A stretch of DNA of 64,000 nt from Candidatus Collierbacteria bacterium RIFOXYD2_FULL_45_13. Lineage in GTDB: Bacteria > Patescibacteriota > Microgenomatia > UBA1400 > MFAQ01. The position numbers and the translations under genes were made by a program. Numbering within the stretch: the first letter of the stretch is position 1; each line of letters starts with the position of its first letter. Where the stretch lies: positions 159,557 through 223,556 of the forward strand of contig MFAS01000001.1 in the NCBI GenBank assembly GCA_001774685.1, written 5' to 3'. This document shows positions 5,681-31,721 of this stretch, one piece after another. Below the pieces are notes generated by a model. That model saw only the letters and a program-made list of their open reading frames with translations. It ran no database searches and had not been told where the DNA came from.

Positions 5681-6115
5681 ATGATAAAATTACAGTGCAT
5701 GAAATACCTCTTTCGACTTCTCGCCATTACTTTATTGTTTCTAGCTCTACTCTCTCCAACTACCGCAAATGCCACATCTGTGGGACCAATCAATTTTGCC
5801 TCCCCTCAAGGATCGTGCGGACAAGACTCCGTGGAAACAGCTCTGGGGTGTATCTCCACATTAGCCGATGCCGGACCAAACTCCTTCTTTGCTTCAATAA
5901 TTAAAATTGCAGTCGGCTTAGGTGGCGGACTCGCCCTGATTCTTATGCTTTACGGAGTCTTCATTGTTACCACCTCGGCTGGCATACCCGACAAGCTCAA
6001 AGAGGGTCAAGAAGTGATTACCTCAGCAATTTCCGGTCTCATCTTCATCATCCTCTCTGTTTTTCTACTAAACTTTATTGGTATCAATATTCTTAGTCTC
6101 CCTGGTTTACAATAA
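5681..6115 (+). CDS. T4SS pilin-like protein (VirB2/TrbC-like, two-TM hairpin)
   Basis: Signal-like N-terminus, then two hydrophobic helices separated by a short polar loop (GIPDKLKEGQEVITSAISGL). The size and topology match the paralogs at 8601..11236. Confidence 0.55.
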   Translation: MIKLQCMKYLFRLLAITLLFLALLSPTTANATSVGPINFASPQGSCGQDSVETALGCISTLADAGPNSFFASIIKIAVGLGGGLALILMLYGVFIVTTSAGIPDKLKEGQEVITSAISGLIFIILSVFLLNFIGINILSLPGLQ

Positions 6116-6119
6116 AATC

Positions 6120-6479
6120 ATGTTCTTCATAAAATCAGCCTACGCCGTAAATATTGGTCAAACCACATTATCAGGTTCTGGAGCTGATATTTCCAAACTT
6201 TACAATCCCGCCGAATCCAAAATCAAGATTGGTTCAGCCTTAAACAGTCTTTTCTCCAAAGACCTCATTAATTTGGTTTTTGTCATCGCCGGACTTCTCT
6301 TTTTTGCCAGTCTTGTCATGGCCGGTTGGGACTATATGATGAGTTCCGGTGACCCCAAAAAGGTAGCAGGGGCATCCACCAGATTTATCAACAGCTTGCT
6401 GGGTATCATTATGTCCCTCGTTGCCTACCTTGTAGTCCGGATAGTTCTGTCATTCTTGGGTCTTGGCAATCTCATTTAA
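6120..6479 (+). CDS. T4SS pilin-like protein (VirB2/TrbC-like)
   Basis: TM1 - loop AGWDYMMSSGDPKKVAGAS - TM2. The loop motif is shared with the 10880 ORF (AGSDPKAVASAW). The start is taken as the ATG at 6120, just after the upstream stop. Confidence 0.5.
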   Translation: MFFIKSAYAVNIGQTTLSGSGADISKLYNPAESKIKIGSALNSLFSKDLINLVFVIAGLLFFASLVMAGWDYMMSSGDPKKVAGASTRFINSLLGIIMSLVAYLVVRIVLSFLGLGNLI

Positions 6480-7462: not shown

Positions 7463-8611
7463 CTATACCTCCCTCTCCACCATATACCTCGCAATCCCCT
7501 CGAGGTAATCGATCGCTTCTTCATTTAACCCCTTACCTCTCAAAGAAGCCGCCGTATCCGCGGCTTTGGCCGCATATTTTCTGGCTACATTTACGGAATA
7601 GGTATGTGCCCCGCTTTCTCTGATCGCCAGTTTTGCCGCCTCTATATCGCCATCCTCCGCCATGAGTTTTCCCCAAACTTTTAACAAGGCCTCCTTTTGG
7701 TTTTCTGTTCCCATCTCCATAACTTTCACAACGAGGAGTGTCACTTTGCCTTGCAATAGATCCGAGTTGGCGGATTTTCCGATTTTTTCTTCGTTGCCAT
7801 AGACACCTAGTACATCATCCTGCAGTTGAAAGGCTATCCCGCCGTCCACCGAATACTTACTTAGTATTTCTAAGATATCTTCCGGCAAACCAGCCAGCAA
7901 ACCGCCAACCATCAAGGGGTTTTCGTATGTATAGATTGCTGTTTTGGCTCTATGCAAGCTCATCACCTTTTCTTCCGTTATCTCTCCTATTTTTGACAAA
8001 CTCACATCGTACGCTTGTCCAAAGGCCGTATTGGTAATTCCTCTCAACACTTGTTTCATTATTCTTTGAATCTTTTCTCTGTCGGAACTACACTCTAACA
8101 ATCTTTCAAATCCTAAGCACAAAATAGCATCCCCGACATTCACGGCCATCGTGTCTCCATAATGAGCATCTCCTTCGCCAAAAAACTCTTGGGTTGTGGG
8201 TCTCCCCCTCCTTATTTTGTCTCCATCCATAAAGTCATCGTGCATTAAAAGAGCCGTGTGCACCAGCTCCACCGCTTCCGCCGCTCTCCACACCCCCTCC
8301 ATATTTTCGAATTTTTGATTTTTTGATTTTTTGAGTTTTTTCCCCAGCCGATATCCATAAATCACAAAGGCTGACCTTGCCCTTTTTGCCGATCTCAAGT
8401 TGTGTTCCTTGCTGTGACACAATATTTTGTGTACCAGTTTCTTCTGTGTCGGATTAAAACCAAAATTTTTCTCAATTTCCTCATCCCAATATTTATTCAA
8501 TCTCAAATCCATTTCTTTAGCCAATTCCATCAACCTTGCTTTCGCCCACTCTCCTAGCTTGTTTGTTACCATGTGTCCAATTTTACTGTAAAATATTCGT
8601 ATGGTTATCAA
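7463..8611 (-). CDS. polyprenyl (farnesyl/geranylgeranyl) diphosphate synthase
   Basis: First Asp-rich motif LLMHDDFMDGDKIRRGRPT and second motif FQLQDDVLGV. The N-terminal region contains a KKLKKSKNQKF stretch encoded by the TTTTTGA repeat. Confidence 0.85.
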   Translation of the reverse strand: MITIRIFYSKIGHMVTNKLGEWAKARLMELAKEMDLRLNKYWDEEIEKNFGFNPTQKKLVHKILCHSKEHNLRSAKRARSAFVIYGYRLGKKLKKSKNQKFENMEGVWRAAEAVELVHTALLMHDDFMDGDKIRRGRPTTQEFFGEGDAHYGDTMAVNVGDAILCLGFERLLECSSDREKIQRIMKQVLRGITNTAFGQAYDVSLSKIGEITEEKVMSLHRAKTAIYTYENPLMVGGLLAGLPEDILEILSKYSVDGGIAFQLQDDVLGVYGNEEKIGKSANSDLLQGKVTLLVVKVMEMGTENQKEALLKVWGKLMAEDGDIEAAKLAIRESGAHTYSVNVARKYAAKAADTAASLRGKGLNEEAIDYLEGIARYMVEREV

Positions 8612-8921
8612 AACCTCTCTTGCCGCAGAATCACTGGAGAACCTCTATGCTCCAGCCAAAGCCTTGAGCGGGGGTAGTGGGGCCACTCTCGCCAAACTCA
8701 TCAATCCTCTGATATACAACGTACTTATTATCTCCGGCCTGATTGCCTTTATTGTCATCATCATCGCTGGCTTCAACTATGTTTCGGCAGGTGGTGACAA
8801 GGGCAAAATTGAACAAGCACAAAACATGCTAAACTATTCAATAATAGGCCTGATATTAGTCGTCCTCGCCTTTTTAATTACTCGGGTCATTGGAGCGATC
8901 TTCGGCTTTAAATTCTTTTAA
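8601..8921 (+). CDS. T4SS pilin-like protein (VirB2/TrbC-like), paralog
   Basis: TM1 (LIISGLIAFIVIIIAGFNYV) - loop SAGGDKGKIEQAQN - TM2. The GGDK loop motif is shared by the tandem paralogs. Confidence 0.6.
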   Translation: MVIKTSLAAESLENLYAPAKALSGGSGATLAKLINPLIYNVLIISGLIAFIVIIIAGFNYVSAGGDKGKIEQAQNMLNYSIIGLILVVLAFLITRVIGAIFGFKFF

Positions 8922-8926
8922 CAAAA

Positions 8927-9286
8927 ATGAACATCCTCAACCAACTTATCAATAGTGCTTATGCCACCGATGTCATTGGCACCATTGATTTACCCGCCGG
9001 AATCCCCAAAGAAACCAGCCAGACCACCGACATTATCTCGGCCCTTATTCGTTTTATCGTTGTTGTGGGCGGAGTTTTTGCCCTTTGGCAATTACTGTCC
9101 GGGGGTTTTCAATTTATCAGCTCCGGCGGAGACAAAGGTAAGTTGGCCGAAGCTCAAAATAAAATTACCATGAGTCTGGTCGGCCTAGTCATCATCGCCG
9201 CCAGTTTCATCATCATCGCCATTATCAGCAAGGTTCTTTTTGATGATTTCGGAGCCATCCTCGCCCCCAAATTACAATCCATCTGA
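8927..9286 (+). CDS. T4SS pilin-like protein, paralog
   Basis: Loop FISSGGDKGKLAEAQNKIT between two TM helices. Confidence 0.6.
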   Translation: MNILNQLINSAYATDVIGTIDLPAGIPKETSQTTDIISALIRFIVVVGGVFALWQLLSGGFQFISSGGDKGKLAEAQNKITMSLVGLVIIAASFIIIAIISKVLFDDFGAILAPKLQSI

Positions 9287-9287
9287 T

Positions 9288-9653
9288 ATGAACAGATTCA
9301 TCCCTACCATACACGCCGCCGACATACCTCTTGGATCAGAAGTCGGTGGAGTAGGCCCTTTTCAAACAGCCATCAGTGGAGGAGTACAGGCCGGACTTGG
9401 TAATTTGCTCTCTAATCTTATTACCACCATGACCGTCATCGGAGGTCTAGCCTTTGTTGTCTATTTCTCGCTTGGAGCGCTCGAATGGATTACCGCCGGT
9501 GGAGACAAAACGAAAGTCTCCGGTGCCCAAACCCAGATGACTCAGGCCGCCATCGGCTTGATCGCCATTGTCGCCTCCTACTTTATTATCGGTATCGTCG
9601 GAGCTGTACTCGGTTTTGATATTCTCAATCCGTTTGCCGCACTAAAACTCTAA
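9288..9653 (+). CDS. T4SS pilin-like protein, paralog
   Basis: Loop WITAGGDKTKVSGAQTQMT between two TM helices. The start is taken as the ATG at 9288, right after the upstream TGA. Confidence 0.6.
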   Translation: MNRFIPTIHAADIPLGSEVGGVGPFQTAISGGVQAGLGNLLSNLITTMTVIGGLAFVVYFSLGALEWITAGGDKTKVSGAQTQMTQAAIGLIAIVASYFIIGIVGAVLGFDILNPFAALKL

Positions 9654-9659
9654 ATATTT

Positions 9660-10010
9660 ATGTCTATCACAATCATCCGCCCCGCCCACGCTGTCAACGA
9701 AATTGTTAACAGAGCCCTTTCTCCCAATGTCCCTCAAGATCCCGGTGGCGGTTTGGCTTTTTATATAGCCAGTCTCTGGCAAACAGTTGTCACCGTCGGA
9801 GGAATTGCCTTTATCATCTATCTAGTCTGGGGCGGTATCGAGTATCTCACCTCCGGTGGGGACAAGGCCAAAATTGATGACGCCCAGAAAAAAATCACCA
9901 GTTCGGTTATCGGTGTCGGTATTTTAGTTGCCTCCTACGCCATTACCTATTTCATTCAAGCTGTCTTCAAGATTAATATTCTCAAACCTGTTTTTCCCAG
10001 CGCACTATGA
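9660..10010 (+). CDS. T4SS pilin-like protein, paralog
   Basis: Loop YLTSGGDKAKIDDAQKKIT between two TM helices. Confidence 0.6.
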   Translation: MSITIIRPAHAVNEIVNRALSPNVPQDPGGGLAFYIASLWQTVVTVGGIAFIIYLVWGGIEYLTSGGDKAKIDDAQKKITSSVIGVGILVASYAITYFIQAVFKINILKPVFPSAL

Positions 10011-10366
10011 TATTCCAAAAACTTTCTCAGGTATTTGCCGCCGATATCGAGCTCCCTATTGGAGAAATGGCCACCAAAAATAACTTTTTCGGCTATACCT
10101 GTATCGGACATCTCGTCAGCAATCTCGTCGCCGCCGCTTTTATCGTTGCCGGTATCGCTTTCTTTGTCTATCTCGTCATGGGAGGCATCCAGTGGCTTAC
10201 TTCCGGCGGAGACAAGGGAAAAATTGAGTCATCCCAGAAGATGATCTCTGCCGCCCTGATCGGCCTAGCCATCGTCGCTTCTAGCTATGCAGTCTATATG
10301 ATTGTTCTCACCTTCTTCGGTATCAATCTAGACGCCCTCTGTACCGACAATCCTCTCGGTAATTGA
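10007..10366 (+). CDS. T4SS pilin-like protein, paralog
   Basis: Loop WLTSGGDKGKIESSQKMIS between two TM helices. There is a 4-nt overlap with the upstream gene. Confidence 0.6.
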   Translation: MIFQKLSQVFAADIELPIGEMATKNNFFGYTCIGHLVSNLVAAAFIVAGIAFFVYLVMGGIQWLTSGGDKGKIESSQKMISAALIGLAIVASSYAVYMIVLTFFGINLDALCTDNPLGN

Positions 10367-10428
10367 CAATTAAAAAATCATATATAATAGTCAGTAATAC
10401 GCATAACAATTATTAAAAAATAAAAAAC

Positions 10429-10770
10429 ATGTCTTTAATTCCTCAAGCATTGGCAGCAGCTGGCACCATCGGAGTTCCCCAACCGACAGGTATGAAGATC
10501 ACCGATATTGGCGTCCTTATCAGCCGTGTTATTTCTCTAGCTTTCATCGTTGCCGGTATTCTCACTTTCGCTTTTCTCGTCATGGGAGGCATTGAGTGGC
10601 TTACTTCCGGAGGAGACAAGGGCAAAACCGAACAGGCCAGAAATCGTATCACCGCCGCGGTTGTCGGTCTTGCGATCGTGGCTGCTTCCTGGGCTTTAAT
10701 GAAACTAATCGCCTATTTCTTTGGCGTTGATGTCTTCGAGGGAAACATCAACATCCCCAAACCCTACTAA
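10429..10770 (+). CDS. T4SS pilin-like protein, paralog
   Basis: Loop WLTSGGDKGKTEQARNRIT between two TM helices. Confidence 0.6.
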   Translation: MSLIPQALAAAGTIGVPQPTGMKITDIGVLISRVISLAFIVAGILTFAFLVMGGIEWLTSGGDKGKTEQARNRITAAVVGLAIVAASWALMKLIAYFFGVDVFEGNINIPKPY

Positions 10771-10798
10771 GAATTTAGTATTAGAAAAAAACAAATTA

Positions 10799-10818
10799 CC
10801 GCCGTCAGGCGGTTTTTT
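10799..10818 (+). terminator. rho-independent terminator after the pilin array
   Basis: ccgcc-gtca-ggcgg followed by TTTTTT. Confidence 0.6.
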
Positions 10819-10830
10819 GTATCCTTTTTT

Positions 10831-10861
10831 AACTTGAGTTTTTGAGTTCTTGAGTTTTTTT
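10831..10861. repeat. tandem TTGAGTTYT repeat (3 units), intergenic copy
   Basis: aacTTGAGTTTTTGAGTTCTTGAGTTTTTTT. Related copies lie at 8311..8342, 33907..33925, 44524..44561 and 53105..53131. Confidence 0.5.
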
Positions 10862-10879
10862 ACGATATAATTATTCTCA

Positions 10880-11236
10880 ATGACCCTTTCTTTCATTCCC
10901 CAAGCATACGCCGCCAGCAATTGGTCTGGAGAATGCGTTGGTCAAAATGTCGCTGGTGTGGACGCCACAGATGTGGCTTCTATCCAAGGAATTACCTGTT
11001 TGCTAAGAAACGTTCTTTCCCCTATACCAGCCCTCATTGCTCTTGCCGCCGTGGGCATCATTATCATGGCCGGCATTCGTCTAACTACTGCCGGATCGGA
11101 TCCCAAAGCAGTAGCTAGTGCTTGGAACATGTTCACTTGGGCCGTCATTGGTCTTATCCTGCTCTCCGCCGTGTGGCTGGCTCTTGTCCTTATCGAAAAC
11201 TTCACTGGTGCCAAGGTTACCCAATTCGGCATTTAA
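10880..11236 (+). CDS. T4SS pilin-like protein (divergent paralog)
   Basis: Signal-like N-terminus, then TM1 - loop TTAGSDPKAVASAWN - TM2. Confidence 0.5.
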   Translation: MTLSFIPQAYAASNWSGECVGQNVAGVDATDVASIQGITCLLRNVLSPIPALIALAAVGIIIMAGIRLTTAGSDPKAVASAWNMFTWAVIGLILLSAVWLALVLIENFTGAKVTQFGI

Positions 11237-11266: not shown

Positions 11267-14200
11267 GTGAAGAAACTTGTCTTATTATTGTTGTGTCTTT
11301 TTGTCTTTTATCTTTTTGGTGTCGACTCCATTTCCGCCGCCACTCCCACCCCAACCCCTACAGCCAACACCAGTCATACTCCCTCTGTTGATGCCGGTGT
11401 CGACGGCCCAAATCCCGCTCCACCAATTGGCATCCCTTGTGGAAAGACTGTTTGTTTGGAAGGTGAGGTTTGTACCAAGTTTCCTGGAGATGTTGATGAG
11501 CACTGTGTCCCGGATCCCATTCCCACCAACGCTGCCGGTGAAAAATTCAACCCTGTCCTTCCACCCCAATGTCCCGCAGGCACAGGGGTCTTCCCTCCCA
11601 ACAGTGTTTGTTGGAATGAAATCATCAACACCCAAACCTCTATCAGAGAGTACGACCACACCTGTATTTACGAACCCGTTGCCGAATACTCAGACGATCG
11701 CTGGTTAAACCGAGGCCCTCAACCTTTTAACCAGTGTGGTATCGGCGACTCCGGCCCGGGTGGCCCACCGGCACCGGGTGGCGACACCTACGAATGCGCC
11801 GTCAACATGCTTGTTTATACCGATGTCCGTGACGCGGAACTGGGTGGCTATGCGCCCAGCACCCTTGCCGAAGCTAGTTACTCGGCCGACTTCTTGGCAC
11901 AGAACTATCTCTACAATTCACTATTTGGACGACCTATGAATCTTTCCAGTAGTTACGACAAAAAGAACGCTGCTCTGAACAACGGCTATCCAACTCGGGA
12001 AGCATATCGAACTTATTGGCGTTTACTTCCGGCCGCCAACCAAGCCAATCTGCGCTCTTTTGTTATGAATTCTGCCCACGATGATCAAATGGATAATTTT
12101 AGTTTTAATTACATTGATTCCAATGGCATGAAAAAGTCCACCAGTTTCAAGAAACTTTTTGATGCTCTCAGCAAACAAGTAATCCTGTTTTGGCATTTTC
12201 CCTTTATCCGTATTGGCTGTCTCACTCAATATCCCGTCTGTCCGGAATACGCTCAGGCTATTCGGGAACTAAAACCGGTCTTTCAGGATATTAGAAATCT
12301 TGTTCGTGATCTCAATCTAGGTCCACTCGCTACGATTCCTATTGATATATACGAAGGCGCTATCTCCGCTTTTGGAGGAGATTTGGATGGACCATACGCC
12401 GCTTTTGTCCCTCTAGATTTTAATAGTATGCGCGGCTACATCCTCAAGAAAAAAGATACCAAAGAAGAATCCTATTATGAGACTTATTACGACGAACTCG
12501 TCGACGAGTACAATTCCGGCCGTTATGGCAGAAACAAACCTCTTTTAACCAATATTTCTTATGAACACCTTCCCTATCTTAGTGCCATCTACCAAGGACT
12601 TCTCTCCCCCAAGTTCGGTATGATCCCTGCTCTTCAACCCCAAGCAATCATCGATAAATGGGCTACAGAAAGTGGCATCTCGGATTATCGTGCCGGCAAC
12701 ACCCCTCTCACCATGCCGGAAGTCAGAATCGCTCAAAAGAACTTTCTTCAACGAATAGTCGACGAAGCAGTCGCAATCATTTCTGACCCACTTGGCTGGA
12801 TTGCCACCAACATTCTGGGGATTGGTACTCCGGAAGATTACAAAAAAGTTGGCTATACCGAGAACGGAACCGATAACCCCAGAGACAGGATCAGATCTGT
12901 CTACGACAATCCGAGGGGTTGCCCCTTACCCACTAGTTATCACCTCCTAGCCCCTAAAACAGTACCCATCTCCTTAGACGATCATCACCAGGTCATCACT
13001 ATTGAAGGCAAACGAGTCCAATGGGCCTACGACCCCATCTGTCAGCCACTCGAGCAACAAAAATGTGATAAAAATGGGCAGAACTGCACGACCGAATATA
13101 TCGACTGCCCCGTCAGCCCTGAAACTTATATTGAGGGTGGTATGTGCTGTACCAGACATTGGCAGGTCTCCGGTCGGGAACATGGCAAAGCACTTGATGT
13201 CTTAAACAATCCCAAACAAACCGATATTCGAGAAGTGGTCGCTGCTAATAATAGTTATTCCTTCTACAAAACAATGCTCCCGGCAGGGGCGTCCAAAATT
13301 ACCGACGCTGCTATCGACGCTTATGAAGCTTTTCACTTTGTCTCTTATAGCGACAGGGGGGGGACAGTAGAAGCCATCGGCCCAAACGACGGTGGTAGTT
13401 CATCAAAAGTATTAAACCCCGCCGAACCGGTCAACCGCATTGACAACTTCTCTCAAGATACCATACACATGTTACAAAACTGCTGGACCGTTCCCGAGAC
13501 TCTTCAAAACTCTCCTCGCTGCAAAATCGAGTTCCCTCCAGAGGCTACATCATCCAGCTCTCTTTGTGGCGGAGAAGCTTTCAAAAAAATTGACCCGAAT
13601 CCCGCCGCCCCCAGTGCCAAGGCCACTGACTTCTTTGTCTCCACCATTGAACCCACTCTCTCTGATGAAGTAATTTCGGCTTATGCCGAAGCCGAAAAAC
13701 AAACTGGCGTTCCTTGTGAAGTCCTAGCCGGTATTCACTTCGAAGAAGGTGATAATGATCCTAAAAAGGATCTCCAAAGTGGTGCCCCTTTAAACGGTCG
13801 GTCTTTAACCGAGTCTGCCGTCCAAGCCGCAGAAGAGCTCAAAGGCAAGGCCGGTGGCGATATTACATCCATGGACCAGCTCGCCATGGCCCTCTCCTAC
13901 TACAACGGTGGTGGTAATGCGAACTGTCAAGCCAGTAGTAGTTACAACTGCCCTTCCGCCACTTCTGACCAGTGTGGAATGACGGCTGCCTGTAGTACTA
14001 ATACTAGTGCTTGCACCTGCACCGGTACCGCCGAGGCCGGAAGCTGTCGCGCAGCATGTACTGCCGGCTTCCCCTATCAATTCAGTTATCCTTACTGTCC
14101 GCCCTCGAACATCGGCTACGACGACCCTTATGTCGTTAACTGGTGGCAGTCTCCTCAGCACGACGAAATGTACCTTCTTTATATGTACGACTGCACTCAG

Positions 14201-14275
14201 ACCAGACCTCAGATACATACCAGACCTGGTTCTCTTACTGTCGCCATCAATTTATTTCTTTCGGAAACAAAATAA
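11267..14275 (+). CDS. large secreted Cys-rich protein (1002 aa), unknown function
   Basis: - GTG start 7 nt after a TATAAT hexamer.
- Signal peptide MKKLVLLLLCLFVFYLFGVDSISAA followed by a TPTPTPT linker.
- Many Cys residues throughout.
- The C-terminal region (GVPCEVLAGIHFEEGDND...LSYYNGGG) might be glycoside-hydrolase-like, but that is speculative. Confidence 0.6.
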   Translation: MKKLVLLLLCLFVFYLFGVDSISAATPTPTPTANTSHTPSVDAGVDGPNPAPPIGIPCGKTVCLEGEVCTKFPGDVDEHCVPDPIPTNAAGEKFNPVLPPQCPAGTGVFPPNSVCWNEIINTQTSIREYDHTCIYEPVAEYSDDRWLNRGPQPFNQCGIGDSGPGGPPAPGGDTYECAVNMLVYTDVRDAELGGYAPSTLAEASYSADFLAQNYLYNSLFGRPMNLSSSYDKKNAALNNGYPTREAYRTYWRLLPAANQANLRSFVMNSAHDDQMDNFSFNYIDSNGMKKSTSFKKLFDALSKQVILFWHFPFIRIGCLTQYPVCPEYAQAIRELKPVFQDIRNLVRDLNLGPLATIPIDIYEGAISAFGGDLDGPYAAFVPLDFNSMRGYILKKKDTKEESYYETYYDELVDEYNSGRYGRNKPLLTNISYEHLPYLSAIYQGLLSPKFGMIPALQPQAIIDKWATESGISDYRAGNTPLTMPEVRIAQKNFLQRIVDEAVAIISDPLGWIATNILGIGTPEDYKKVGYTENGTDNPRDRIRSVYDNPRGCPLPTSYHLLAPKTVPISLDDHHQVITIEGKRVQWAYDPICQPLEQQKCDKNGQNCTTEYIDCPVSPETYIEGGMCCTRHWQVSGREHGKALDVLNNPKQTDIREVVAANNSYSFYKTMLPAGASKITDAAIDAYEAFHFVSYSDRGGTVEAIGPNDGGSSSKVLNPAEPVNRIDNFSQDTIHMLQNCWTVPETLQNSPRCKIEFPPEATSSSSLCGGEAFKKIDPNPAAPSAKATDFFVSTIEPTLSDEVISAYAEAEKQTGVPCEVLAGIHFEEGDNDPKKDLQSGAPLNGRSLTESAVQAAEELKGKAGGDITSMDQLAMALSYYNGGGNANCQASSSYNCPSATSDQCGMTAACSTNTSACTCTGTAEAGSCRAACTAGFPYQFSYPYCPPSNIGYDDPYVVNWWQSPQHDEMYLLYMYDCTQTRPQIHTRPGSLTVAINLFLSETK

Positions 14276-14280
14276 ATTAT

Positions 14281-14850
14281 ATGAATAAGAAAATCCTCAT
14301 CCCCATTATCAGCGTTATCATTCTCTTTTTTGTTTTTTTACTGATCTCCATTCTTCGCTATCGCTCGGAGAGACCAAGCTTTTTGGAAACCATTCCTCTC
14401 TTCTCCCAACCTACTCCAAAAGTGACCAGAACTATAGTCCCGACCATTACCACTATACCCGGCGTACCCAACCAAACAAATCTTGAATCTATAGCCAAAG
14501 CAAAAGACAGTACCAAATCACTCGTCGAAAAAAACAAGATTTTTGACGCTCTGCCTATTAGGGAAGAAGACTTCTCCACGTCGGCAAATATCAAAACAAC
14601 CATCAATATATACAACTTACTTTATGATCCTGAGTCTGCCCTTCGAGTCGAAATCTATGGCATCAATTACAACAATCAGGATATTAACAGTAAAGACGCC
14701 CTCGCTTTTAAAGAGTCTTTCCTCAAGGCTAAACAATTTTTTAGCAAATACCAGGTAAACCTTAATAGTCTGCAAATTATTTACGGTAATCGTCAATATA
14801 TTCAAGACACGGCCACCTACTGGGTTAAAACCTTCAAACTCCTCGATTAA
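14281..14850 (+). CDS. membrane-anchored hypothetical protein (190 aa)
   Basis: N-terminal TM anchor (ILIPIISVIILFFVFLLISIL) with an extracytoplasmic domain. A VirB8-like role is only a guess from position. Confidence 0.5.
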   Translation: MNKKILIPIISVIILFFVFLLISILRYRSERPSFLETIPLFSQPTPKVTRTIVPTITTIPGVPNQTNLESIAKAKDSTKSLVEKNKIFDALPIREEDFSTSANIKTTINIYNLLYDPESALRVEIYGINYNNQDINSKDALAFKESFLKAKQFFSKYQVNLNSLQIIYGNRQYIQDTATYWVKTFKLLD

Positions 14851-14886: not shown

Positions 14887-16674
14887 TTGACTATGCGATC
14901 GCTTCAAAAACATCTCAGCCTTATTTTTCTATTTCTTTTCACACTGACTTCAATTGTATTTGTACCTCAAGTCCGAGCCGCCACTTCTCCCACTACGAAC
15001 ACGTTTGGGGTACCCGGAGTCAAAACTCTTCAAGATTATGTCAAGGAGTTCTGTGATAAACGCTCCGGTGACTTGATGAACCTAGAAACCTGGTACTCCG
15101 GTAAATGTGGCCCGACAGTAGACACCCTTAGTGGTGACGGCGTGGGGTTTGTCGATATCGTTATCCTCCAAGGTATGGAGTGGGTCAATGCCCTAACCTT
15201 TAACTCACCAGGAGACAGTTATATTGATAGTGTCAAACGCCAGCTAGAATTCCTCCAAGCTATCAAGGACGCCCTTACTGCTTCCACCAACCAAACAAAT
15301 CTCAATGATATTGCCTTTATGTCCATTAAGGGAAGCGGCTTATTGGATTCTGCGGGCAGGGCAGTCGCGGGACTTGCCACCACCAGACCGGCTAGTTCTA
15401 TCGACTACGTTGCCTACGTATCCTCAAATCTTAGAAAACACAAAGTAATCGGTGATACCTATGCGGCCGGTCCGGGTTATGGCTTTACCGCTCTCGCCCC
15501 CATCCTTCCTCTCTGGCGTGCTTTCAGAAACATTGCCTACCTCTTGTTTGCACTCGGCTTCGTCCTCTACGGCATTATGATTATGTTCCGGGTCAAGATC
15601 GATTCAAAAACGGCCGCCACCATCCAGCTCGCCATACCCAAACTTATAGCCACTCTTCTGATGATCACTTTTTCTTACGCTATAGTTGGTTTCTTGGTCG
15701 ATATCTCCACCATCGCCGATGCCATGGCTATTAGTATTCTCCGAGCAGGCGGAATTCTCAACTCCAGCGGTTTTGGATCAAGTATCGGCAGCGGCCTTGT
15801 CGACGTCGTCAGTGGACAAACTATTTTCGGTGCCATTGGTTCTTTCCTAATCAACACCGTTACTGCCGTGATTATTTCCCCTTTCCTTTTTTTCAACCTC
15901 CTTCTTGGAGGTCTAGCAGGTATCATCGTCGCTGTATTCGTTTCCGGCTTAAGTATGATTACCGGACTGGGAATAATTGTCAGTATTATCATCATCATTG
16001 CCATTGCCATTTCTTATTTCAAGCTAATACTCAAACTTTTCCAAGCCTTCTTTGGTGTCATCATCAATCTTATTTTTGCCCCAATCATTCTATTGGGAAA
16101 TTTACTTCCGGGTTCCACTTCTTTCGGCGACTGGCTCAGAAGTATTTATGGCAATCTGGCCGTCTTTCCCGTCGCCATCTTTTTTCTTACTATGTCTTAT
16201 GCCCTAATGTGCCAACCACTCCTCTCTCTTGCAGGATCAGGTGGGCTACTCAGCGGTGTCATTACTGCCGGCCTAGAAAACCTGATTGGTGTCAACCAAC
16301 TCTCTACTCTTAGCAACATCTGGACACCACCCCTGACAATACCGGGAGGTCAATTCACCTCAGGTGGGGCAACTACTGGCACTGCCACAGGCAGTGTCGG
16401 CAGTCTCATGTTAGGAACTATCGGTTTTGGTCTTCTCCTTATGTCCAGTAAGTACTGTGAGATGGTCGAAAAGGCCCTCAAGACGCCTCCATTCCCCTAC
16501 GGCGCCGCCATCGGCGAAGCCCTCAAGACCGGAGTCAACCTGCAAGACAAGTGGGCTCAGAGCGGTTATAAACTACCTGCCGCAAAATACACTGCCCCAA
16601 TAAGCAGTTATCTACGAACAACCCCAGGACTCGAAGTTAAACCGACGGTCGACGCTCTCACAAAAGACGTTTAG
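14887..16674 (+). CDS. polytopic membrane protein, VirB6/TrbL-like candidate
   Basis: Signal peptide, then a soluble domain of about 190 aa, then at least 8 hydrophobic helices and a Gly/Thr-rich C-terminus. This architecture is typical of VirB6/TrbL/PrgH-like channel proteins. Assigned from topology and context. Confidence 0.45.
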   Translation: MTMRSLQKHLSLIFLFLFTLTSIVFVPQVRAATSPTTNTFGVPGVKTLQDYVKEFCDKRSGDLMNLETWYSGKCGPTVDTLSGDGVGFVDIVILQGMEWVNALTFNSPGDSYIDSVKRQLEFLQAIKDALTASTNQTNLNDIAFMSIKGSGLLDSAGRAVAGLATTRPASSIDYVAYVSSNLRKHKVIGDTYAAGPGYGFTALAPILPLWRAFRNIAYLLFALGFVLYGIMIMFRVKIDSKTAATIQLAIPKLIATLLMITFSYAIVGFLVDISTIADAMAISILRAGGILNSSGFGSSIGSGLVDVVSGQTIFGAIGSFLINTVTAVIISPFLFFNLLLGGLAGIIVAVFVSGLSMITGLGIIVSIIIIIAIAISYFKLILKLFQAFFGVIINLIFAPIILLGNLLPGSTSFGDWLRSIYGNLAVFPVAIFFLTMSYALMCQPLLSLAGSGGLLSGVITAGLENLIGVNQLSTLSNIWTPPLTIPGGQFTSGGATTGTATGSVGSLMLGTIGFGLLLMSSKYCEMVEKALKTPPFPYGAAIGEALKTGVNLQDKWAQSGYKLPAAKYTAPISSYLRTTPGLEVKPTVDALTKDV

Positions 16675-16717: not shown

Positions 16718-19537
16718 TTATAGAATTAGGTCTTTTTTCGCTCTATTCCAATAAGTCTCTGGAAACACCATCTTATTATCAAGTTTTTCAGCTCTTATCG
16801 ACTTCCTGGCCAGTTCAACAATTGCTGCCGTAGCGTGTACACCACTACCCCACCATGCCGGATAATCCTTCGGTTTAAAGTCATTAGCCAATGCGACGAT
16901 CACGCTAAAACAGTTCTTCCAAAGATGGTCCACATAATTCACATATTCCCTTTTGTTCGCTAGAAGAGGTTCTGATTTTTCCGTTGACTTCCCATCCCAC
17001 AAATAAGCTTTTACTTCAGGGGTCTGCACGTCGGTCGCTAATACCTGTTCGGCTTTTTCTGCTAGCTTCTTCATATCCCAGGGCTGTTGATTTTTGAAGT
17101 CAGCAACCGAATGTGCATGTAAGAAAGATTCGCAAGCGGTCAACATTGTCATTGAGACCCATTCATCTACACTTTGCCACTGACCATTAAAGGAAAATTC
17201 TGGCGGAATCATATCCTTCTCATTTACGATTCCAGCTGCCTTCATCGAGGTCTTCCAATGCACAATACATTTTGTTTTTAAGGCTCCCAATTTATCTATA
17301 TCCGATTCTGGCTTCAGGGCTTCTTTCAAGGCTACCAAAAGATCCAAAGCTGTCTTCATTTCCTCTATTCTTGACTCCGTGTCTGTTGCAATTTGAACCT
17401 TCCCTGATTCAGTCACAGCTTGTATCAAACTCTTCCATTCTTTGTCTTTTTGCTTTTCAAGTAATTTTTGGGCCTCTGATTTAACAGAATCTTCTGCAAC
17501 CCTACCTTTAGCCCCCATCACCACTCTGGCTTTCTTTCTTTCATATACCGCGATAACTTCAGCCTTTGTCCATTTCACAACCACACCGTCGACTTCAAAA
17601 CCATGGTTTGCAATCCTTATCCATTCATCTCCATTAGTTTCAAAGGTTACGTCGATTGCTCTCTGAGCCCCAGTATACAAGTTTTCCTGTACTCTCCACT
17701 TGAGCCATTCTCCAGCTTCGAGAGCTCTATCCCCACCATTCGATAGACCGGTTGGCACCAAATGGCTTGGGAAATGTTTTGACAACCAAACTTCAATTTC
17801 ATCTTGACTCGGTTTTCTACCATAGTTTGCCATTTGAAACTGAACAAAAGCTTGTGCTGTTTTTTCCCTATCGACAGCGACATCTCTCGATTTACGTCTC
17901 TTTGTGTCACCATGAACCATCAATAGGAACGGGTCTAAACTTGTCCCCTTTGTGTCGGTGGCCATTAGACTAGACATCAACATGGCAAAAGCAACTTCTC
18001 CAACATACCTATTCAAACCCAATTTCTTATATAACTCGGCTTTCTTTTCCGCCGCCACAGCCACATATCCGTCCCAATAGTCATTATTATCAAAAAAATT
18101 CTTGAGTTTAAGCATTGCCTTGCTTATCTCTATCTGTATATTCTTTGGACCAGCTTCCCCGGGAAGCATCATCATGTTATCACCCAACCGGTTTCCATCT
18201 TTGTCATATTTACCTTCAAATGCCAGTTCCGTGTACTTTGGAACAAACAGAGAGGAGTTTAGTCTGGCAGAGGTAATGTCCTCAAGACCTTTTAGCTTAT
18301 CCCATTCAGAAACAACGTTCTTAATGCTAATAAAGTTGTCTAGACTCATTTCTTCAACAATCCTTTGTACTTCCTCATTTAATAAAGGCACCTGCTCCAT
18401 CGGAATACCCATTTTTGTAGCCAATAACCCCTGCGGACCAAAAAATGAGCCACTAATGGATCTTTCGTTCGTCATTCCCAAGTCAAAGATACTATCCAAA
18501 CAATATTGCCTGATCGCATCCGCCTGAGATGGTGTTAACTTCAATTCAAAATCAATTACTTCCTGAACTCTGGCAACATCATCTGGAGATACACCCGGTT
18601 TCCCTCCAAAATCTCTCATCCACCGCAAAGCGGCTTCCTTTTGCTGTTTAATATTACCCATAAAAAAGGCCGGATTGATTACTTGTTCCAAACGTTCACT
18701 GGCGCCTTGCAAATTAGTTTGTGTCTGTAATGCCAATTCTGGTGACTCAAGCTTTTCTTCTACCAATTTAAGTATTCCAGCAGGAGCAAGACCTTTCACC
18801 ATTTCTCTCCGTAAATTCTCAAGGGCTTGTCTTTTGCTACCCAACGAATACCCATCGATAATGACCAAAGTGTCGTCTAATTTTTTTTGCCATTTGTTCA
18901 CAGGAGCGGCTTCATCGACGGGAATTGTTGGTTCAGACTCTATATCTCCGCCTGCTGACAGTACTACATCCACCCCTAAAGGAACATCAAGTCTAAGCGT
19001 TTTCTCCATAAAATCTTTTTGTTCTGCGGAAATTGCACCGTCCTTCAAAGACTCAGCCAAATCTCTTATTTTTTCTTTTCTTTCAGCAATTCTCTTTCTG
19101 CCATCTTGAGTTGCAAAACTTAAATCTCTGTTCAGGATAAAATCTAAATCTGCTCCATCCTCTCTTAGTCTTCTGATTGCGCCTAATCTTTCTCGTACTT
19201 TGTCCTGTTTCTCCGCAGCAGTTTTCCCCAAAGTGGCAAGTCGTAGATCCTCTGCAATCTCAGCTGCTTCCCGAATACCTTCTCCAACTTCCACAGCTCG
19301 CACTGGAGTACCCACCGGCTCCGGCAAAACTACAGTTCCCTTCAAAATAGAGGCCATTTCTGCCTGAGTACCCGGATCAGTCAGACTCTCTGCAATTTCC
19401 ATCACATCTGCATTAGTATCGTCTTCTTTCCAAGATATTCTCATTTCTCCAAGATTCTTTTGTGCCAAAGGATCGCCGGCTCTAGCCTGTTCGATCAACT
19501 TTGCCTGCATCGCCACCATTTTTTCGCTATGTTCCAT
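16718..19537 (-). CDS. large uncharacterised protein (939 aa), cytoplasmic, highly charged
   Basis: Uninterrupted 2.8 kb ORF with no signal peptide, TM helix or recognisable motif. In an operon with the 658-aa ORF (39-nt spacing). Confidence 0.6.
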   Translation of the reverse strand: MEHSEKMVAMQAKLIEQARAGDPLAQKNLGEMRISWKEDDTNADVMEIAESLTDPGTQAEMASILKGTVVLPEPVGTPVRAVEVGEGIREAAEIAEDLRLATLGKTAAEKQDKVRERLGAIRRLREDGADLDFILNRDLSFATQDGRKRIAERKEKIRDLAESLKDGAISAEQKDFMEKTLRLDVPLGVDVVLSAGGDIESEPTIPVDEAAPVNKWQKKLDDTLVIIDGYSLGSKRQALENLRREMVKGLAPAGILKLVEEKLESPELALQTQTNLQGASERLEQVINPAFFMGNIKQQKEAALRWMRDFGGKPGVSPDDVARVQEVIDFELKLTPSQADAIRQYCLDSIFDLGMTNERSISGSFFGPQGLLATKMGIPMEQVPLLNEEVQRIVEEMSLDNFISIKNVVSEWDKLKGLEDITSARLNSSLFVPKYTELAFEGKYDKDGNRLGDNMMMLPGEAGPKNIQIEISKAMLKLKNFFDNNDYWDGYVAVAAEKKAELYKKLGLNRYVGEVAFAMLMSSLMATDTKGTSLDPFLLMVHGDTKRRKSRDVAVDREKTAQAFVQFQMANYGRKPSQDEIEVWLSKHFPSHLVPTGLSNGGDRALEAGEWLKWRVQENLYTGAQRAIDVTFETNGDEWIRIANHGFEVDGVVVKWTKAEVIAVYERKKARVVMGAKGRVAEDSVKSEAQKLLEKQKDKEWKSLIQAVTESGKVQIATDTESRIEEMKTALDLLVALKEALKPESDIDKLGALKTKCIVHWKTSMKAAGIVNEKDMIPPEFSFNGQWQSVDEWVSMTMLTACESFLHAHSVADFKNQQPWDMKKLAEKAEQVLATDVQTPEVKAYLWDGKSTEKSEPLLANKREYVNYVDHLWKNCFSVIVALANDFKPKDYPAWWGSGVHATAAIVELARKSIRAEKLDNKMVFPETYWNRAKKDLIL

Positions 19538-19576: not shown

Positions 19577-21553
19577 TCACCCGAGACCCAATAAGCGTGC
19601 GTAGGCACCAGCTATCTTCGTCATTGCCGGGAACTCAGCTCTTTTTGCCTCGCTCATCCTCCAAACCTCTACTACTGCTCTAAGTTGCATCATCAGGTCC
19701 TTAGATTTACCTGGAGCAGCTTTCTCCATATCCGTCAAGAACTTCCTTATTTTTATCCCCTCAGCCTCGAGTGAAGCAAGAACAGGCTCCTTTGCCCCTT
19801 CGTCAACCAGCTCAGATAGTTGAATTAACATATTTTCAACACTAACTTTTTTGTTCTCTTTACTTTCAACCACAGGCCTAGCTTCAACAGCTTTCATTCC
19901 CTTTGCCTCCTCCGAATCCGGCAGATATGGAACCCCACCCTCTCTAATTTTCATTCTTTTTAACCACTCGACAATCTGTTCCCTATTTTCCCACTTTATC
20001 GAAGTACCTTCTAGTTTATATGGATACGTTACCTCTTTGTCAGACAACAACAACTCCGCTGCGTTTCTCAACCATTGTCTATTTTGATATGCTTGTTCCA
20101 TACTTGGGTCAAAGGAAATACTCGGTATATCAGCTCCCCGACGTATAAGATATTGTCTGATTTCTTCACTCCTCGCGGGATCTGTCCCTAAAACAGTAGC
20201 AGCTACTATATCCCCCAAGATGCCGTCATACCAAACTAAATTATCATTTTTCTCTCCCTCTTTGGTTCCTGTTTCCTCATCTATCCCATGCCCCTGTCCA
20301 AGACGTTTTTTAATCTCACCGTATAGCATCATCCATTTATAAAATTTCTCTAAGTTATTTCCTAAAAATACTTTTAGGTCTTTACTCATGGAAGCAATGT
20401 CATAATTTTCAGATTGTCTCTGAATTTCTGCTATAAGTTTTTGTATCTTTTTTCCTTCAACACCTCCAAGGTCTTTAGAATAAACTATCCCTAGTGTTGA
20501 AACATCAACTTTCGTATCTACGCCGATTACATTCAGATTGTACCCTCTACTTATTAGTCTCCTCACAGCCGCCAATCTCTCCGCATCACCAAACCGTAAA
20601 TCTCCCAACTGCTGGCGCATACTCTCATTCATGGGAACATTACCCAAGATCTTCAAAGCGGGAACCGGATCAACAAAAGAGGATTCGTCGCTAATCCTTA
20701 ACTCTGCCTTATCAACAATTCCGATATTTGTTATAGATGCTGTCTCTTTGAGCAGAGAATCTGCTGATGTTTGCTTCTCATCCGCCGGATGCTCACCTTT
20801 TTGTAGCAACATTCTCCGCGCTTCCCTCAAATCTTCTAGGTTAACTCTCGATTCAGATATGAGCGAAGTGTTTTCTTTCCAATCCAAAGGCTCTTCTGTT
20901 TCCAGATTCAAATATTTTTGTATCTCCAGCGTCATCCTTCGCCCATCCTCAAATCTCCTAACCGGCTTCCCTTCGCTACCAGCTCTGTCACTGGGTTTTG
21001 TCAACCACTTAATATGGAATTTCTTTATCCTTTCTTTTGCACCATTCCAAGCTTCAGGCGAAGCACTAACTTCATTTCTTTCTGGGTAAATTATCTTCAG
21101 GTCACCAACAAGTTGTGTTGCATAATATTCTGCACTATCAGCTTCCTTTGTCTCAGGCGCTCTATCAAATTCTTTAACTTCTGAGGTTATCACTCGTGGA
21201 GAACCAGTCTTTATTTCTACAGTACGGACATCACTACCACCCGTATCTGACATCACAACTTCAGCTATTCTTTGGCCGCCCTTTTGGCTACCTGTTTTTT
21301 CAACCACTTCCGGAATATCCTTATCTTCTTCGGCCAGGCTTCGCAAAGAAACCTTCTTTTTGTCAGGTTTTTTCTTTGTTGGAGCTATATTTCTAGCCTC
21401 CTCTTCTATCCTTAATCTCTCGGCTTTTGCTTCTTCAGATTCTACTAAGCCTTTTGGAACATCAGCCACCACAGATTGCCCTCCACTAGATTTTTCCAAT
21501 ATTTTTTTAAATCTATCTAATCGTGATTGTGTCGGTTCACTTGCTGGTGGCAT
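19577..21553 (-). CDS. large uncharacterised protein (658 aa), cytoplasmic, Lys/Glu-rich
   Basis: Uninterrupted ORF with no signal peptide, TM helix or recognisable motif. Divergently arranged from the PrgI-like gene. Confidence 0.6.
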   Translation of the reverse strand: MPPASEPTQSRLDRFKKILEKSSGGQSVVADVPKGLVESEEAKAERLRIEEEARNIAPTKKKPDKKKVSLRSLAEEDKDIPEVVEKTGSQKGGQRIAEVVMSDTGGSDVRTVEIKTGSPRVITSEVKEFDRAPETKEADSAEYYATQLVGDLKIIYPERNEVSASPEAWNGAKERIKKFHIKWLTKPSDRAGSEGKPVRRFEDGRRMTLEIQKYLNLETEEPLDWKENTSLISESRVNLEDLREARRMLLQKGEHPADEKQTSADSLLKETASITNIGIVDKAELRISDESSFVDPVPALKILGNVPMNESMRQQLGDLRFGDAERLAAVRRLISRGYNLNVIGVDTKVDVSTLGIVYSKDLGGVEGKKIQKLIAEIQRQSENYDIASMSKDLKVFLGNNLEKFYKWMMLYGEIKKRLGQGHGIDEETGTKEGEKNDNLVWYDGILGDIVAATVLGTDPARSEEIRQYLIRRGADIPSISFDPSMEQAYQNRQWLRNAAELLLSDKEVTYPYKLEGTSIKWENREQIVEWLKRMKIREGGVPYLPDSEEAKGMKAVEARPVVESKENKKVSVENMLIQLSELVDEGAKEPVLASLEAEGIKIRKFLTDMEKAAPGKSKDLMMQLRAVVEVWRMSEAKRAEFPAMTKIAGAYARLLGLG

Positions 21554-21682
21554 CTCACTCTCATCTTAACATTTTCACCCTTCAGACATATACAATATTT
21601 TTCCCAAATCTCACCAGACACGATATACTTAACTAGACTCATCGAACCAGCAACCAACAACTTAAGAACTTCTCACCAAGAC

Positions 21683-31597: not shown

Positions 31598-31721
31598 ACG
31601 CCCATTCTCACTACTTATCCACATTTTTACAACCCCCAATTTACCCAAAAAGAATAATACTATCCACATCACCTCCTTTGAGGGTATAATGTCCTGTTCC
31701 CATCAATGTTAAAATAATCAT

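Follow-up and report, generated by a model that had tools for sequence, protein, structure and literature searches.

Why would a host-dependent bacterium keep nine different genes for what looks like one kind of pilin? The question is raised by a stretch of 64,000 nucleotides (hereafter the window) from RIFOXYD2_FULL_45_13, a Candidatus Collierbacteria bacterium and member of the Microgenomatia among the Patescibacteria (contig MFAS01000001.1 of assembly GCA_001774685.1, positions 159,557 to 223,556 of the forward strand). Seven small genes, here called pil1 to pil7, run head to tail between window positions 8601 and 11236, and two relatives, pil8 and pil9, lie at 5681-6479. Patescibacteria depend on host cells, and a type IV secretion system (T4SS) with a pilin array is among the few machines shown to be essential for this lifestyle, in a cultivated member. 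A first-pass annotation, made from the letters of the window, left two readings side by side: the diversification of a surface filament subunit (antigenic or host-range variation), or a filament of major plus minor pilins. Comparative results narrow these hypotheses. The genes form a fixed, anciently diverged set; one conserved copy is predicted to be expressed separately; most copies have a degenerate leader; the array is accompanied by a linked VirB6-like gene; and a relative exists in the pilin-like protein of Mycoplasma integrative and conjugative elements (ICEs). Together, these results favour the second of the two readings, major plus minor subunits, over antigenic variation. We consider it reasonably probable that a monoderm-type machine of VirB4, VirB3 and VirB6-like proteins assembles the exported hairpins into a filament or conduit, in which Pil6 would be the major subunit and the remaining copies a fixed set of minor ones.

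The nine genes are listed below (aa, amino acids; ↓, predicted cleavage site; bit scores are those against the Pfam family PF18895, T4SS_pilin, whose gathering cut-off is 26.6 bits).

5681-6115, forward strand: pil8, 144 aa; divergent; loop AGIPDK; N-terminal segment with two Cys; 19.5 bits (E 1e-3), below the cut-off.
6120-6479, forward strand: pil9, 119 aa; loop SGDPKK; 27.7 bits.
8601-8921, forward strand: pil1, 106 aa; first of the tight pil1-5 block; leader MVIKTSLA↓AES; 41.2 bits.
8927-9286, forward strand: pil2, 119 aa; leader MNILNQLINSAYA↓TD; 27.0 bits.
9288-9653, forward strand: pil3, 121 aa from the preferred ATG start; leader MNRFIPTIHA↓AD; 24.5 bits.
9660-10010, forward strand: pil4, 116 aa; leader MSITIIRPAHA↓VN; 31.2 bits.
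10007-10366, forward strand: pil5, 119 aa; leader MIFQKLSQVFA↓AD; 23.7 bits.
10429-10770, forward strand: pil6, 113 aa; candidate major subunit; leader MSLIPQALA↓AAG; 37.8 bits.
10880-11236, forward strand: pil7, 118 aa; divergent; loop GSDPK; leader MTLSFIPQAYA↓AS; 39.4 bits.

This arrangement, already described in the first-pass annotation, is borne out by the list of open reading frames (ORFs), by the sequence itself and by the PF18895 matches. From pil1 to pil7, the gaps measure 5, 1, 6, -4, 62 and 109 nucleotides (nt). Two 4-nt overlaps had been claimed; the pil4/pil5 overlap (ATGA) is the sole one, and the other would need the upstream TTG start of pil3. The longest pil3 ORF begins at this TTG (position 9240) and encodes 137 aa. 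The ATG at 9288, one base past the pil2 stop, gives the 121-aa form, which is the NCBI call and whose orthologs begin at the same aligned position. For pil9, an alternative TTG start at 6078 would give 133 aa with a 23-aa leader, the NCBI call being the 119-aa form.

All nine paralogs match PF18895 (E 1.7e-10 to 1e-3), the match to the hidden Markov model (HMM) spanning positions 3-71 of 71, and the earlier view that they are paralogs within a pilin family is upheld in that all belong to a family curated as T4SS pilin. Six score above the cut-off (pil1, pil7, pil6, pil4, pil9 and pil2, in descending order); pil3, pil5 and pil8 fall below it, but their matches are significant (E <= 1e-3) and each is a paralog or positional neighbour of the others. 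Because all nine match one Pfam family, the array is not a product of chance. The same family is matched by 56 of 56 relatives, while no other Pfam family is matched by more than 12 of the 56. A multiple alignment of the nine proteins, suggested in the first pass, gave pairwise identities of 19-47% and a conserved loop: GGDKxK is the best-conserved block, exact in pil1-6 but limited to them, with the related sequences GSDPK in pil7, AGIPDK in pil8 and SGDPKK in pil9. The loop motif originally proposed, [WF][ILV][TS][SA]GGDK[GAT]K[ILV], is thus correct in its core for pil1-6 and slightly too narrow in its flanks, since Y occurs in pil1 and pil4 and T is the last residue in pil6. An AlphaFold2 model of Pil6, built with 56 relatives, is a two-helix hairpin (helices 27-59 and 64-98) with a predicted local distance difference test score (pLDDT) of about 95 in the hairpin, which fits the layout first predicted, namely an N-terminal segment followed by a transmembrane (TM) segment, a loop and a second TM segment.

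Is the set of paralogs fixed, or does it vary from genome to genome? A scan with pil4-6 of one genome per species yielded 80 Microgenomatia loci, whose six-frame ORFs were searched with an HMM made from the paralogs and 120 homologs. All 80 loci contain a run of pilin-like ORFs, between 3 and 12 in number; where the number is lowest, the contig is in several cases short or truncated. When each ORF is assigned to its best window paralog, about 30 Collierbacteria-like loci show exactly the order 8-9 … 1-2-3-4-5-6-7, down to some 40-60% identity, and the margins between best and second-best bit scores are mostly about 25-170, a few pil5 assignments falling to 14. More distant classes retain a recognisable x-2-3-(2-3)-4-x-6-x pattern. 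A positional ortholog of pil8 is present in 29 related loci and one of pil7 in 34. The most conserved paralog is pil6, with 70-98% identity across loci; the least conserved are pil9, pil1 and pil7.

Within orthologous groups, mean identity to the window copy is 20-72% in the segment from the leader to the first TM segment and 55-83% in the hairpin, in agreement with the earlier remark that the N-terminal parts vary and the TM hairpin is conserved. The ratio of nonsynonymous to synonymous substitution rates (dN/dS) along these two regions, a comparison also suggested in the first pass, was obtained by pooled Nei-Gojobori estimates against ten close loci: it is higher in the N-terminal segment (0.09-0.33) than in the hairpin (0.03-0.09) but never near 1, and, with dS saturated (1.3-2.6 even for the closest genomes), the values are relative and indicative only. 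The N-terminal segments of pil8 and pil9 are the fastest (dN 0.5-1.0), pil9 being the fastest-evolving copy. In both segments dN lies far below dS, and the ratios show nothing beyond that. Because the order is kept with clear positional orthologs in about 30 loci and dN is far below dS, the nine paralogs are, on this comparative evidence, an ancient and fixed set of individually maintained subunits and not a rapidly varying cassette. Such a set speaks for major plus minor subunits and against antigenic variation of a cassette-like kind.

Which of the nine would be the major subunit? Across 32 loci, the median gap is 3 nt between pil1 and pil2 (range -4 to 97), 1 nt between pil2 and pil3 (-11 to 65), 2 nt between pil3 and pil4 (-34 to 68) and -4 nt between pil4 and pil5 (-4 to 189, the -4 overlap occurring in most loci). 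Between pil5 and pil6 it is 63 nt (47-97). The corresponding spacer of the window is 62 nt long and A+T-rich, and two signals flank pil6.

10363-10388, forward strand: promoter-like motif TTGACA-N14-TATAAT, an exact match in the spacer between pil5 and pil6, where the pil5 stop is overlapped by the -35 hexamer.
10798-10821, forward strand: intrinsic-terminator-like hairpin ACCGCC-GTCA-GGCGGT with a T-run, 3' of pil6; the hairpin itself occupies 10798-10813.

With at most one mismatch per hexamer, the TTGACA…TATAAT motif occurs in 26 of 32 pil5-pil6 spacers, as against 15 of 1640 random 70-nt windows (0.9%), 2 of 31 regions upstream of pil1 and none of the pil6-pil7 gaps. It is followed on its 3' side by an A-rich motif, AATTATTAA; in most Collierbacteria loci the region between the promoter-like motif and the pil6 start (10389-10428 in the window) holds a conserved A-rich element (…AATTATTAAAAAA…AAAAAA(T)ATG). 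No Shine-Dalgarno-like sequence is visible ahead of any pilin gene. The terminator after which the seventh copy had been said to follow corresponds to the hairpin between pil6 and pil7; a terminator-like hairpin recurs in this gap in 29 of 32 related loci and was not found in the pil5-pil6 spacer of the 32 loci. As judged from these signals, pil6 would be expressed both by read-through and from its own promoter. Since it is the most conserved copy and has its own conserved promoter-like motif and a terminator, pil6 probably encodes the abundant (major) subunit.

How would these proteins enter the membrane? One Ala is common to all nine paralogs and invariant in the alignment; it occupies position -1 of an AxA-type site, and all nine obey the -3/-1 rule (SLA↓A, AYA↓T, IHA↓A, AHA↓V and VFA↓A in pil1-5; ALA↓A, AYA↓A, ANA↓T and AYA↓V in pil6-9). 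The variable N-terminus described in the first pass does diverge strongly, but it begins with a short conserved leader that ends in this site. In pil1, 2, 4, 5, 6 and 7, in-frame stops 2-10 codons 5' of the Met (3 codons in pil1) limit the leader to 8-13 residues, a length too short for a normal Sec signal peptide. Pil8 alone has a full-length signal peptide, a canonical one of 31 aa (…TTANA↓TS), with pil9 possibly having another when read from its TTG start. Orthologs of the same paralogs occur in three states, with a short leader, with a full signal peptide (a pil6 ortholog has MKKLAALTSAALGLLSQATPALA↓QN) or with no leader at all (a pil4 ortholog has its Met at the predicted mature end, MDEIVNN…). 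Because all three states converge on one predicted mature N-terminus, we predict that the leader, where it exists, is removed by cleavage after the AxA-type site, and that the short N-terminal tail can be exported independently of a leader, possibly by a YidC-type route. An alternative genetic code that would extend the short leaders was rejected, indirectly, as translation table 11 gives uninterrupted ORFs of up to 1143 aa. The window also holds two genes of YidC/Oxa1-family insertases (49100-49897 and 34225-34962) in a genome of about 1.09 Mb; the more divergent of them sits just upstream of the coupling-protein-like gene listed below. A second YidC may be relevant to leader-independent pilin insertion.

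Is there a machine to assemble such subunits? The link to a T4SS supposed in the first pass is supported by genes for PrgI, TrsD-like, VirB4 and M23 proteins, which lie 10-16 kb downstream of the array and adjoin dnaN and dnaA. From the end of the array onward, the relevant features are the following.

11267-14275, forward strand: secreted Cys/Pro-rich protein of 1002 aa, directly 3' of the array; no Pfam or NCBIfam match.
14281-14850, forward strand: 189-aa protein with one N-terminal TM segment; no known family; detected in 16 loci.
14887-16674, forward strand: 595-aa polytopic membrane protein, candidate divergent VirB6 by its fold matches to TrwI/VirB6.
16718-19537, reverse strand: 939-aa highly charged, apparently cytoplasmic protein; no family match.
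19577-21553, reverse strand: 658-aa highly charged, apparently cytoplasmic protein; no family match.
21527-22600, forward strand: PrgI-family (VirB3-like) protein with a long Pro/Ser/Thr-rich C-terminal part; PF12666 (PrgI), E 5.5e-9.
22603-23253, forward strand: TrsD-like protein resembling the N-terminal part of VirB4; NCBIfam TrsD, E 1.4e-5, below cut-off.
23283-25175, forward strand: VirB4 ATPase of monoderm type; NF045971 (CD1110 family), 359 bits against a cut-off of 325.
25178-27709, forward strand: 843-aa protein with a C-terminal M23 peptidase domain; PF01551, E 2e-19.
28719-29831: dnaN.
30218-31672: dnaA.
50554-53985, forward strand: distant coupling-protein-like ATPase (VirD4/TraD-like) with a C-terminal NUDIX domain, 1143 aa; TrwB_AAD_bind 22.7 bits, TraG-D_C 22.0 bits.

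The VirB4 protein matches the Pfam families P-loop_TraG, AAA_10 and CagE_TrbE_VirB, and its second-best model is the Mycoplasma ICE VirB4, Mbov_0397. Two VirB4 models, Mbov_0397 and CD1110, are likewise matched in their N-terminal regions by the TrsD-like protein, with every score below cut-off; BLASTP gives no alignment between it and the window VirB4, and their kinship is visible through the NCBIfam profiles alone. The M23 protein is a predicted cell-wall hydrolase and would be a functional analogue of VirB1/PrgK. About 25 kb from virB4, the coupling-protein-like ATPase has its NUDIX domain at E 1.2e-9 and matches NCBIfam CD1115 and TraD below cut-off. No relaxase family turned up among the window ORFs scanned, which did not take in all small ORFs, and no gene of the cyclase/TraF type or TraX type of processing enzyme was seen in the window. 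Homologs of the 1002-aa protein (22-63% identity) stand downstream of the array in 33 of 80 loci, and homologs of the 939-aa and 658-aa proteins were detected in just 5-6 related loci.

The product of 14887-16674 deserves separate mention. It has no Pfam match; its AlphaFold2 model (pLDDT 68), compared by Foldseek with 350,542 PDB chains, had as its five best matches TrwI/VirB6 of the R388 T4SS (E 0.028-0.21, probability up to 0.96, low template modelling (TM) scores of 0.19/0.33). Of the 80 Microgenomatia loci, 55 have a homolog downstream of the array in the same orientation. Moderate evidence, model and synteny combined, thus links the array physically to the gene of an assembly platform, a candidate VirB6. 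VirB6 is reported to be scarce in Microgenomatia (PMC12102498), and this protein may be their "missing" divergent VirB6.

How do these subunits relate to pilins known elsewhere? None of the nine window paralogs matches PF04956 (TrbC/VirB2), and the likeness to canonical TrbC/VirB2 profiles that the first pass had proposed to look for was not detectable by Pfam or by profile comparison with hhalign. As that similarity is not detectable, the label "pilin" rests on PF18895 membership, architecture and context. By profile matching, the nearest named relative outside the Candidate Phyla Radiation is the Mbov_0395 pilin-like protein of Mycoplasma ICEs: its model, NF045849, is matched by 8 of 9 window paralogs and 49 of 56 relatives (best E 4.8e-8), the next NCBIfam family matching at most 6 of 56. 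Scores reach about 29 bits at most (28.8 for pil1, the best in the window), under the 40-bit cut-off, and mark these proteins as relatives and not as members. Both systems come from monoderm bacteria, and the resemblance extends to the VirB4 match with Mbov_0397; in contrast to the chromosomal nine-gene array described here, the model is named after single ICE genes (MMCAP2_0565, Mbov_0395) and presumably represents a component of mobile ICEs. A nearest named relative from monoderm ICEs weakens the idea of a pilin co-opted from diderm T4SSs.

The likeness to TrbC/VirB2 (the T-pilus and F-pilus subunits) is one of design: both have two hydrophobic helices, a short charged loop and a leader ending in an AxA-type site, both would measure some 70-110 aa after processing, which is predicted here, and both are encoded together with VirB4 and VirB6, here a candidate VirB6. 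They differ in that homology is not detectable, that VirB2 leaders measure about 30-50 aa as opposed to mostly 8-13 aa here, and that VirB2 serves diderm T4SSs whereas the present host has no outer membrane and its pilus is putative. Several divergent pilin genes adjoining one T4SS are also found in the virB2 families of Bartonella, Anaplasma and Rickettsia (PMC12102498); those are discussed as antigenic or host-interaction variants, whereas the window genes form a conserved orthologous set under purifying selection. A further analogy is offered by type IV pili and type II pseudopili, in which one abundant subunit is encoded together with several conserved low-abundance paralogs, yet both the proteins and the machinery are unrelated, and the present system has neither a class III (G↓F) prepilin leader nor a PilD-type peptidase. 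PrgF of pCF10, a 75-aa hairpin whose loop aligns with the GGDK loop, was considered as a possible Gram-positive counterpart and rejected, the match not being significant (E 0.07 in a five-sequence search, hhalign probability 0.5%).

From the family membership, hairpin fold, synteny, selection pattern and expression signals observed here, we infer a scheme of membrane topology, leader cleavage, filament formation and subunit roles. The nine products would be pilin-like subunits of a chromosomal, monoderm-type T4SS of Patescibacteria. Each hairpin would insert in the cytoplasmic membrane with both ends outside and the conserved, positively charged GGDKxK loop facing the cytoplasm, and the N-terminal leader would be cut after the AxA-type site. 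The VirB4 ATPase, acting with VirB3/PrgI, the TrsD-like protein and the VirB6-like protein, would pull the hairpins out of the membrane, and the extracted hairpins would build an envelope-spanning filament or conduit used in host-cell contact. Pil1-5 would be translated from one tightly packed block. Pil6 would probably be the abundant subunit, and Pil7-9, with their different loop and Cys-containing N-terminal segments, would probably serve as specialised minor subunits.

Several observations weigh against this scheme. A profile of the 56-sequence pilin alignment found no match among PDB sequences even at E <= 10; TrbC is matched weakly by 4 of 56 relatives (best E 0.0055) and CagC, also weakly, by 4 of 56. 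Compared by hhalign with a VirB2 profile built from 120 Agrobacterium-type homologs of pTi VirB2, the pilin profile obtained a probability of 0.4%, equal to that of reversed controls, although this VirB2 profile is narrow (Rhizobiales-type) and a distant homology may escape it. Foldseek matched the Pil6 model to generic helical hairpins alone, none of them in the PDB with E <= 1e-3, and the only conjugative-pilin fold among the matches, the A. pernix pilus 8dfu, came at rank 40 with a non-significant E of 7.5; the modelled hairpin is generic and cannot discriminate a pilin from other helical proteins. The VirB6 assignment rests on an E of 0.03 and low TM-scores, and the two opposite-strand genes (939 and 658 aa) part the module of array and VirB6-like gene from the VirB3/VirB4 module. 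The TTGACA…TATAAT hexamers are 14 nt apart in most loci, which is unusual for a promoter, and the saturation of dS noted above blunts the measure of selection. Finally, a T4SS pilus in Patescibacteria was still called a possibility in a 2025 review, none having been seen extracellularly (PMC12857230).

Could the array nevertheless be a diversification system, in which tandem duplicates vary their exposed N-termini for evasion or host switching, as proposed for the virB2 genes of Bartonella and Anaplasma? The idea is discussed for Patescibacteria (PMC12102498), and it draws on the fact that the N-terminal segments are the most divergent part between paralogs, that those of pil8 and pil9 evolve fast (dN 0.5-1.0) and that copy number ranges from 4 to 12 per locus among more distant Microgenomatia. 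We nonetheless find the antigenic or host-range diversification once suggested for this array quite improbable. Each of the nine copies has an unambiguous positional ortholog, in the same order, in about 30 genomes; within their orthologous groups, pil5 and pil6 keep their N-terminal segments well (mean identity 60% and 72%); the pooled dN/dS of 0.09-0.33 is well below 1; the gene and spacer layout bears no sign of recombination cassettes, no dedicated repeat search having been made; and every pilin gene of the array of Ca. Southlakia epibionticum is reported to be essential, which speaks against redundancy (PMC10633639). Barely credible, in our opinion, is the notion that these are unrelated small membrane proteins (holins, bacteriocin-immunity proteins, transporter subunits) that resemble pilins by virtue of their hydrophobic helices. 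Single sequences do match many unrelated membrane-protein families weakly, the fold search is non-specific, and some source databases name homologs transporter subunits; but across the relatives PF18895 and the Mycoplasma ICE model outdistance any other Pfam or NCBIfam family (56 and 49 of 56, against at most 12 and 6), the VirB6-like linkage is conserved with virB4 nearby, and Pfam and NCBIfam scans of most large window ORFs contained no family of the holin, endolysin or bacteriocin type. We reject the holin/bacteriocin reading because the family matches are consistent and the genes are linked to a T4SS; the sole phage-associated domain in those scans belongs to a BRO-N protein (33001-33837) about 20 kb from the array.

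What the subunits build is a subtler matter, on which fused proteins bear. At E <= 1e-3, an exhaustive profile search of 1.84 billion cluster representatives retrieved 81,145 proteins; at E <= 1e-10, the number was 18,652. In many of the top matches a single polypeptide, with one signal peptide, strings together 2-17 hairpin modules by short linkers; as the ranking favours multi-module proteins, whose scores add up, the frequency of such polypilins cannot be read from the list. Between 6 and 17 tandem PF18895 modules are carried by P0361, P0364, P0373, P0456 and P0504. Of these, P0361 (locus L085, 1777-3435; 552 aa, six modules) is an uninterrupted ORF within an array of single-module pilin genes; in the two-module P0372, the modules best match pil3 and pil4, adjacent array members. 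The fused forms suggest that hairpins which are neighbours lie next to one another once assembled. One could envision that no long pilus is drawn out of the membrane and that the nine paralogs, in fixed proportions, line the inside of the T4SS channel as a hetero-oligomeric ring or short tube, resembling the pilus-independent role of VirB2 in substrate transfer or the c-rings of ATP synthase. Such a ring would agree with the fixed and positionally conserved set, with the tight translational coupling of pil1-5, which suggests equal stoichiometry, with the existence of the fusions, one of them a confirmed ORF inside a pilin array and another made of modules akin to neighbours in the array, and with a nearest named relative in wall-less Mycoplasma ICEs. 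However, nothing in the data separates a ring from a filament: the fused modules fit equally a helical filament with both termini facing outward, the list of fusions is biased toward multi-module proteins, and the separate, strong-looking promoter of pil6 suggests one subunit in large excess, as expected of a polymer. We regard the ring as unlikely, albeit worth serious thought. Returning to the filament or conduit with Pil6 as its major subunit, it is tempting to speculate further that all nine paralogs form one ordered hetero-oligomer, an extension that we hold to be possible though doubtful. Pil6 would polymerise, equimolar Pil1-5 would make a base or adaptor, and Pil7-9 would be tip or otherwise specialised subunits; in this lineage, with leaders decayed to 8-13 residues or to nothing, the hairpins would insert without a normal Sec signal peptide, perhaps by a YidC-type route, and the polypilins, with as many as 17 modules, would represent this assembly in covalently joined form. 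The order of the copies is conserved across Collierbacteria and partly across Microgenomatia. If true, this would be a monoderm T4SS filament or conduit on a plan other than that of the homopolymeric VirB2 pilus.

A pilin array was reportedly noted in TM7x by McLean et al. in 2020. Both this type of array and the reading given in the first pass are already in the literature, and the locus adds no new kind of system. Quinonero-Coronel et al. (2025) screened 3,035 Patescibacteria genomes with PF18895 among their profiles and counted 441 VirB2 arrays, each of 2-11 pilin genes, among 383 assemblies; Microgenomatia and Saccharimonadia were especially rich in them, and the members of an array shared about 25% identity on average. 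They noted T4SS genes near dnaA and, taking Bartonella and Anaplasma as analogues, discussed host adaptation or antigenic variation (PMC12102498). Their definition of an array, at least two VirB2-like/PF18895 genes in tandem or with one non-pilin gene between them (PMC12102498), covers the window, with seven genes in tandem at 8601-11236 and two at 5681-6479, and the VirB4, PrgI and TrsD-like genes and the proximity of dnaA/dnaN agree as well. Like the published Patescibacteria arrays, this one consists of tandem divergent PF18895 copies, is chromosomal, lies near dnaA and accompanies a monoderm-type VirB4 with VirB3 and TrsD, no relaxase appearing among the ORFs scanned; nothing is different in kind. 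In Ca. Southlakia epibionticum ML1, Wang et al. (2023) found a six-gene pilin array within the T4SS cluster to be essential (PMC10633639), a result also covered by a 2025 review (PMC12857230). The passages of the array papers examined do not describe strict positional orthology, a copy with a promoter-like element and terminator of its own, leaders that are short and degenerate, or a linked VirB6 candidate.

The present genome itself appears in Table S1 of the 2025 survey, as GCA_001774675.1 in the class Microgenomatia (PMC12102498). That table lists GCA_001774635.1, GCA_001774675.1 and GCA_001774685.1 under different names, each with 1,089,434 bp and 1165 proteins (PMC12102498), and the three Collierbacteria assemblies appear to be one genome deposited several times. 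Elsewhere in the window, the BRO-N gene and one for an RNase H/RVT_3 protein (36791-37228) stand near the dnaA-yidC region. Almost all 2-kb bins have a negative GC skew; as it keeps its sign around dnaA/dnaN (28.7-31.7 kb), an origin-type skew switch next to dnaA is not visible in the window.

Cysteines mark some of the subunits. Pil5 has one just before the first TM segment (…YTCIG…) and one in its C-terminal tail (…ALCTD…), both predicted to lie on the outer side, and a pair of conserved Cys is found in the N-terminal segment of both Pil7 and Pil8; disulfides between these residues could staple pilin termini. The ORF that occupies the place of pil8 reaches 240-300 aa in several related genomes, with a long, Cys-rich N-terminal extension ahead of the pilin hairpin (L017 1152-2057, L019 5821-6678, L022 4874-5704 and L034 4906-5730). 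These extended pil8 orthologs could be an adhesin-like or tip-like variant.

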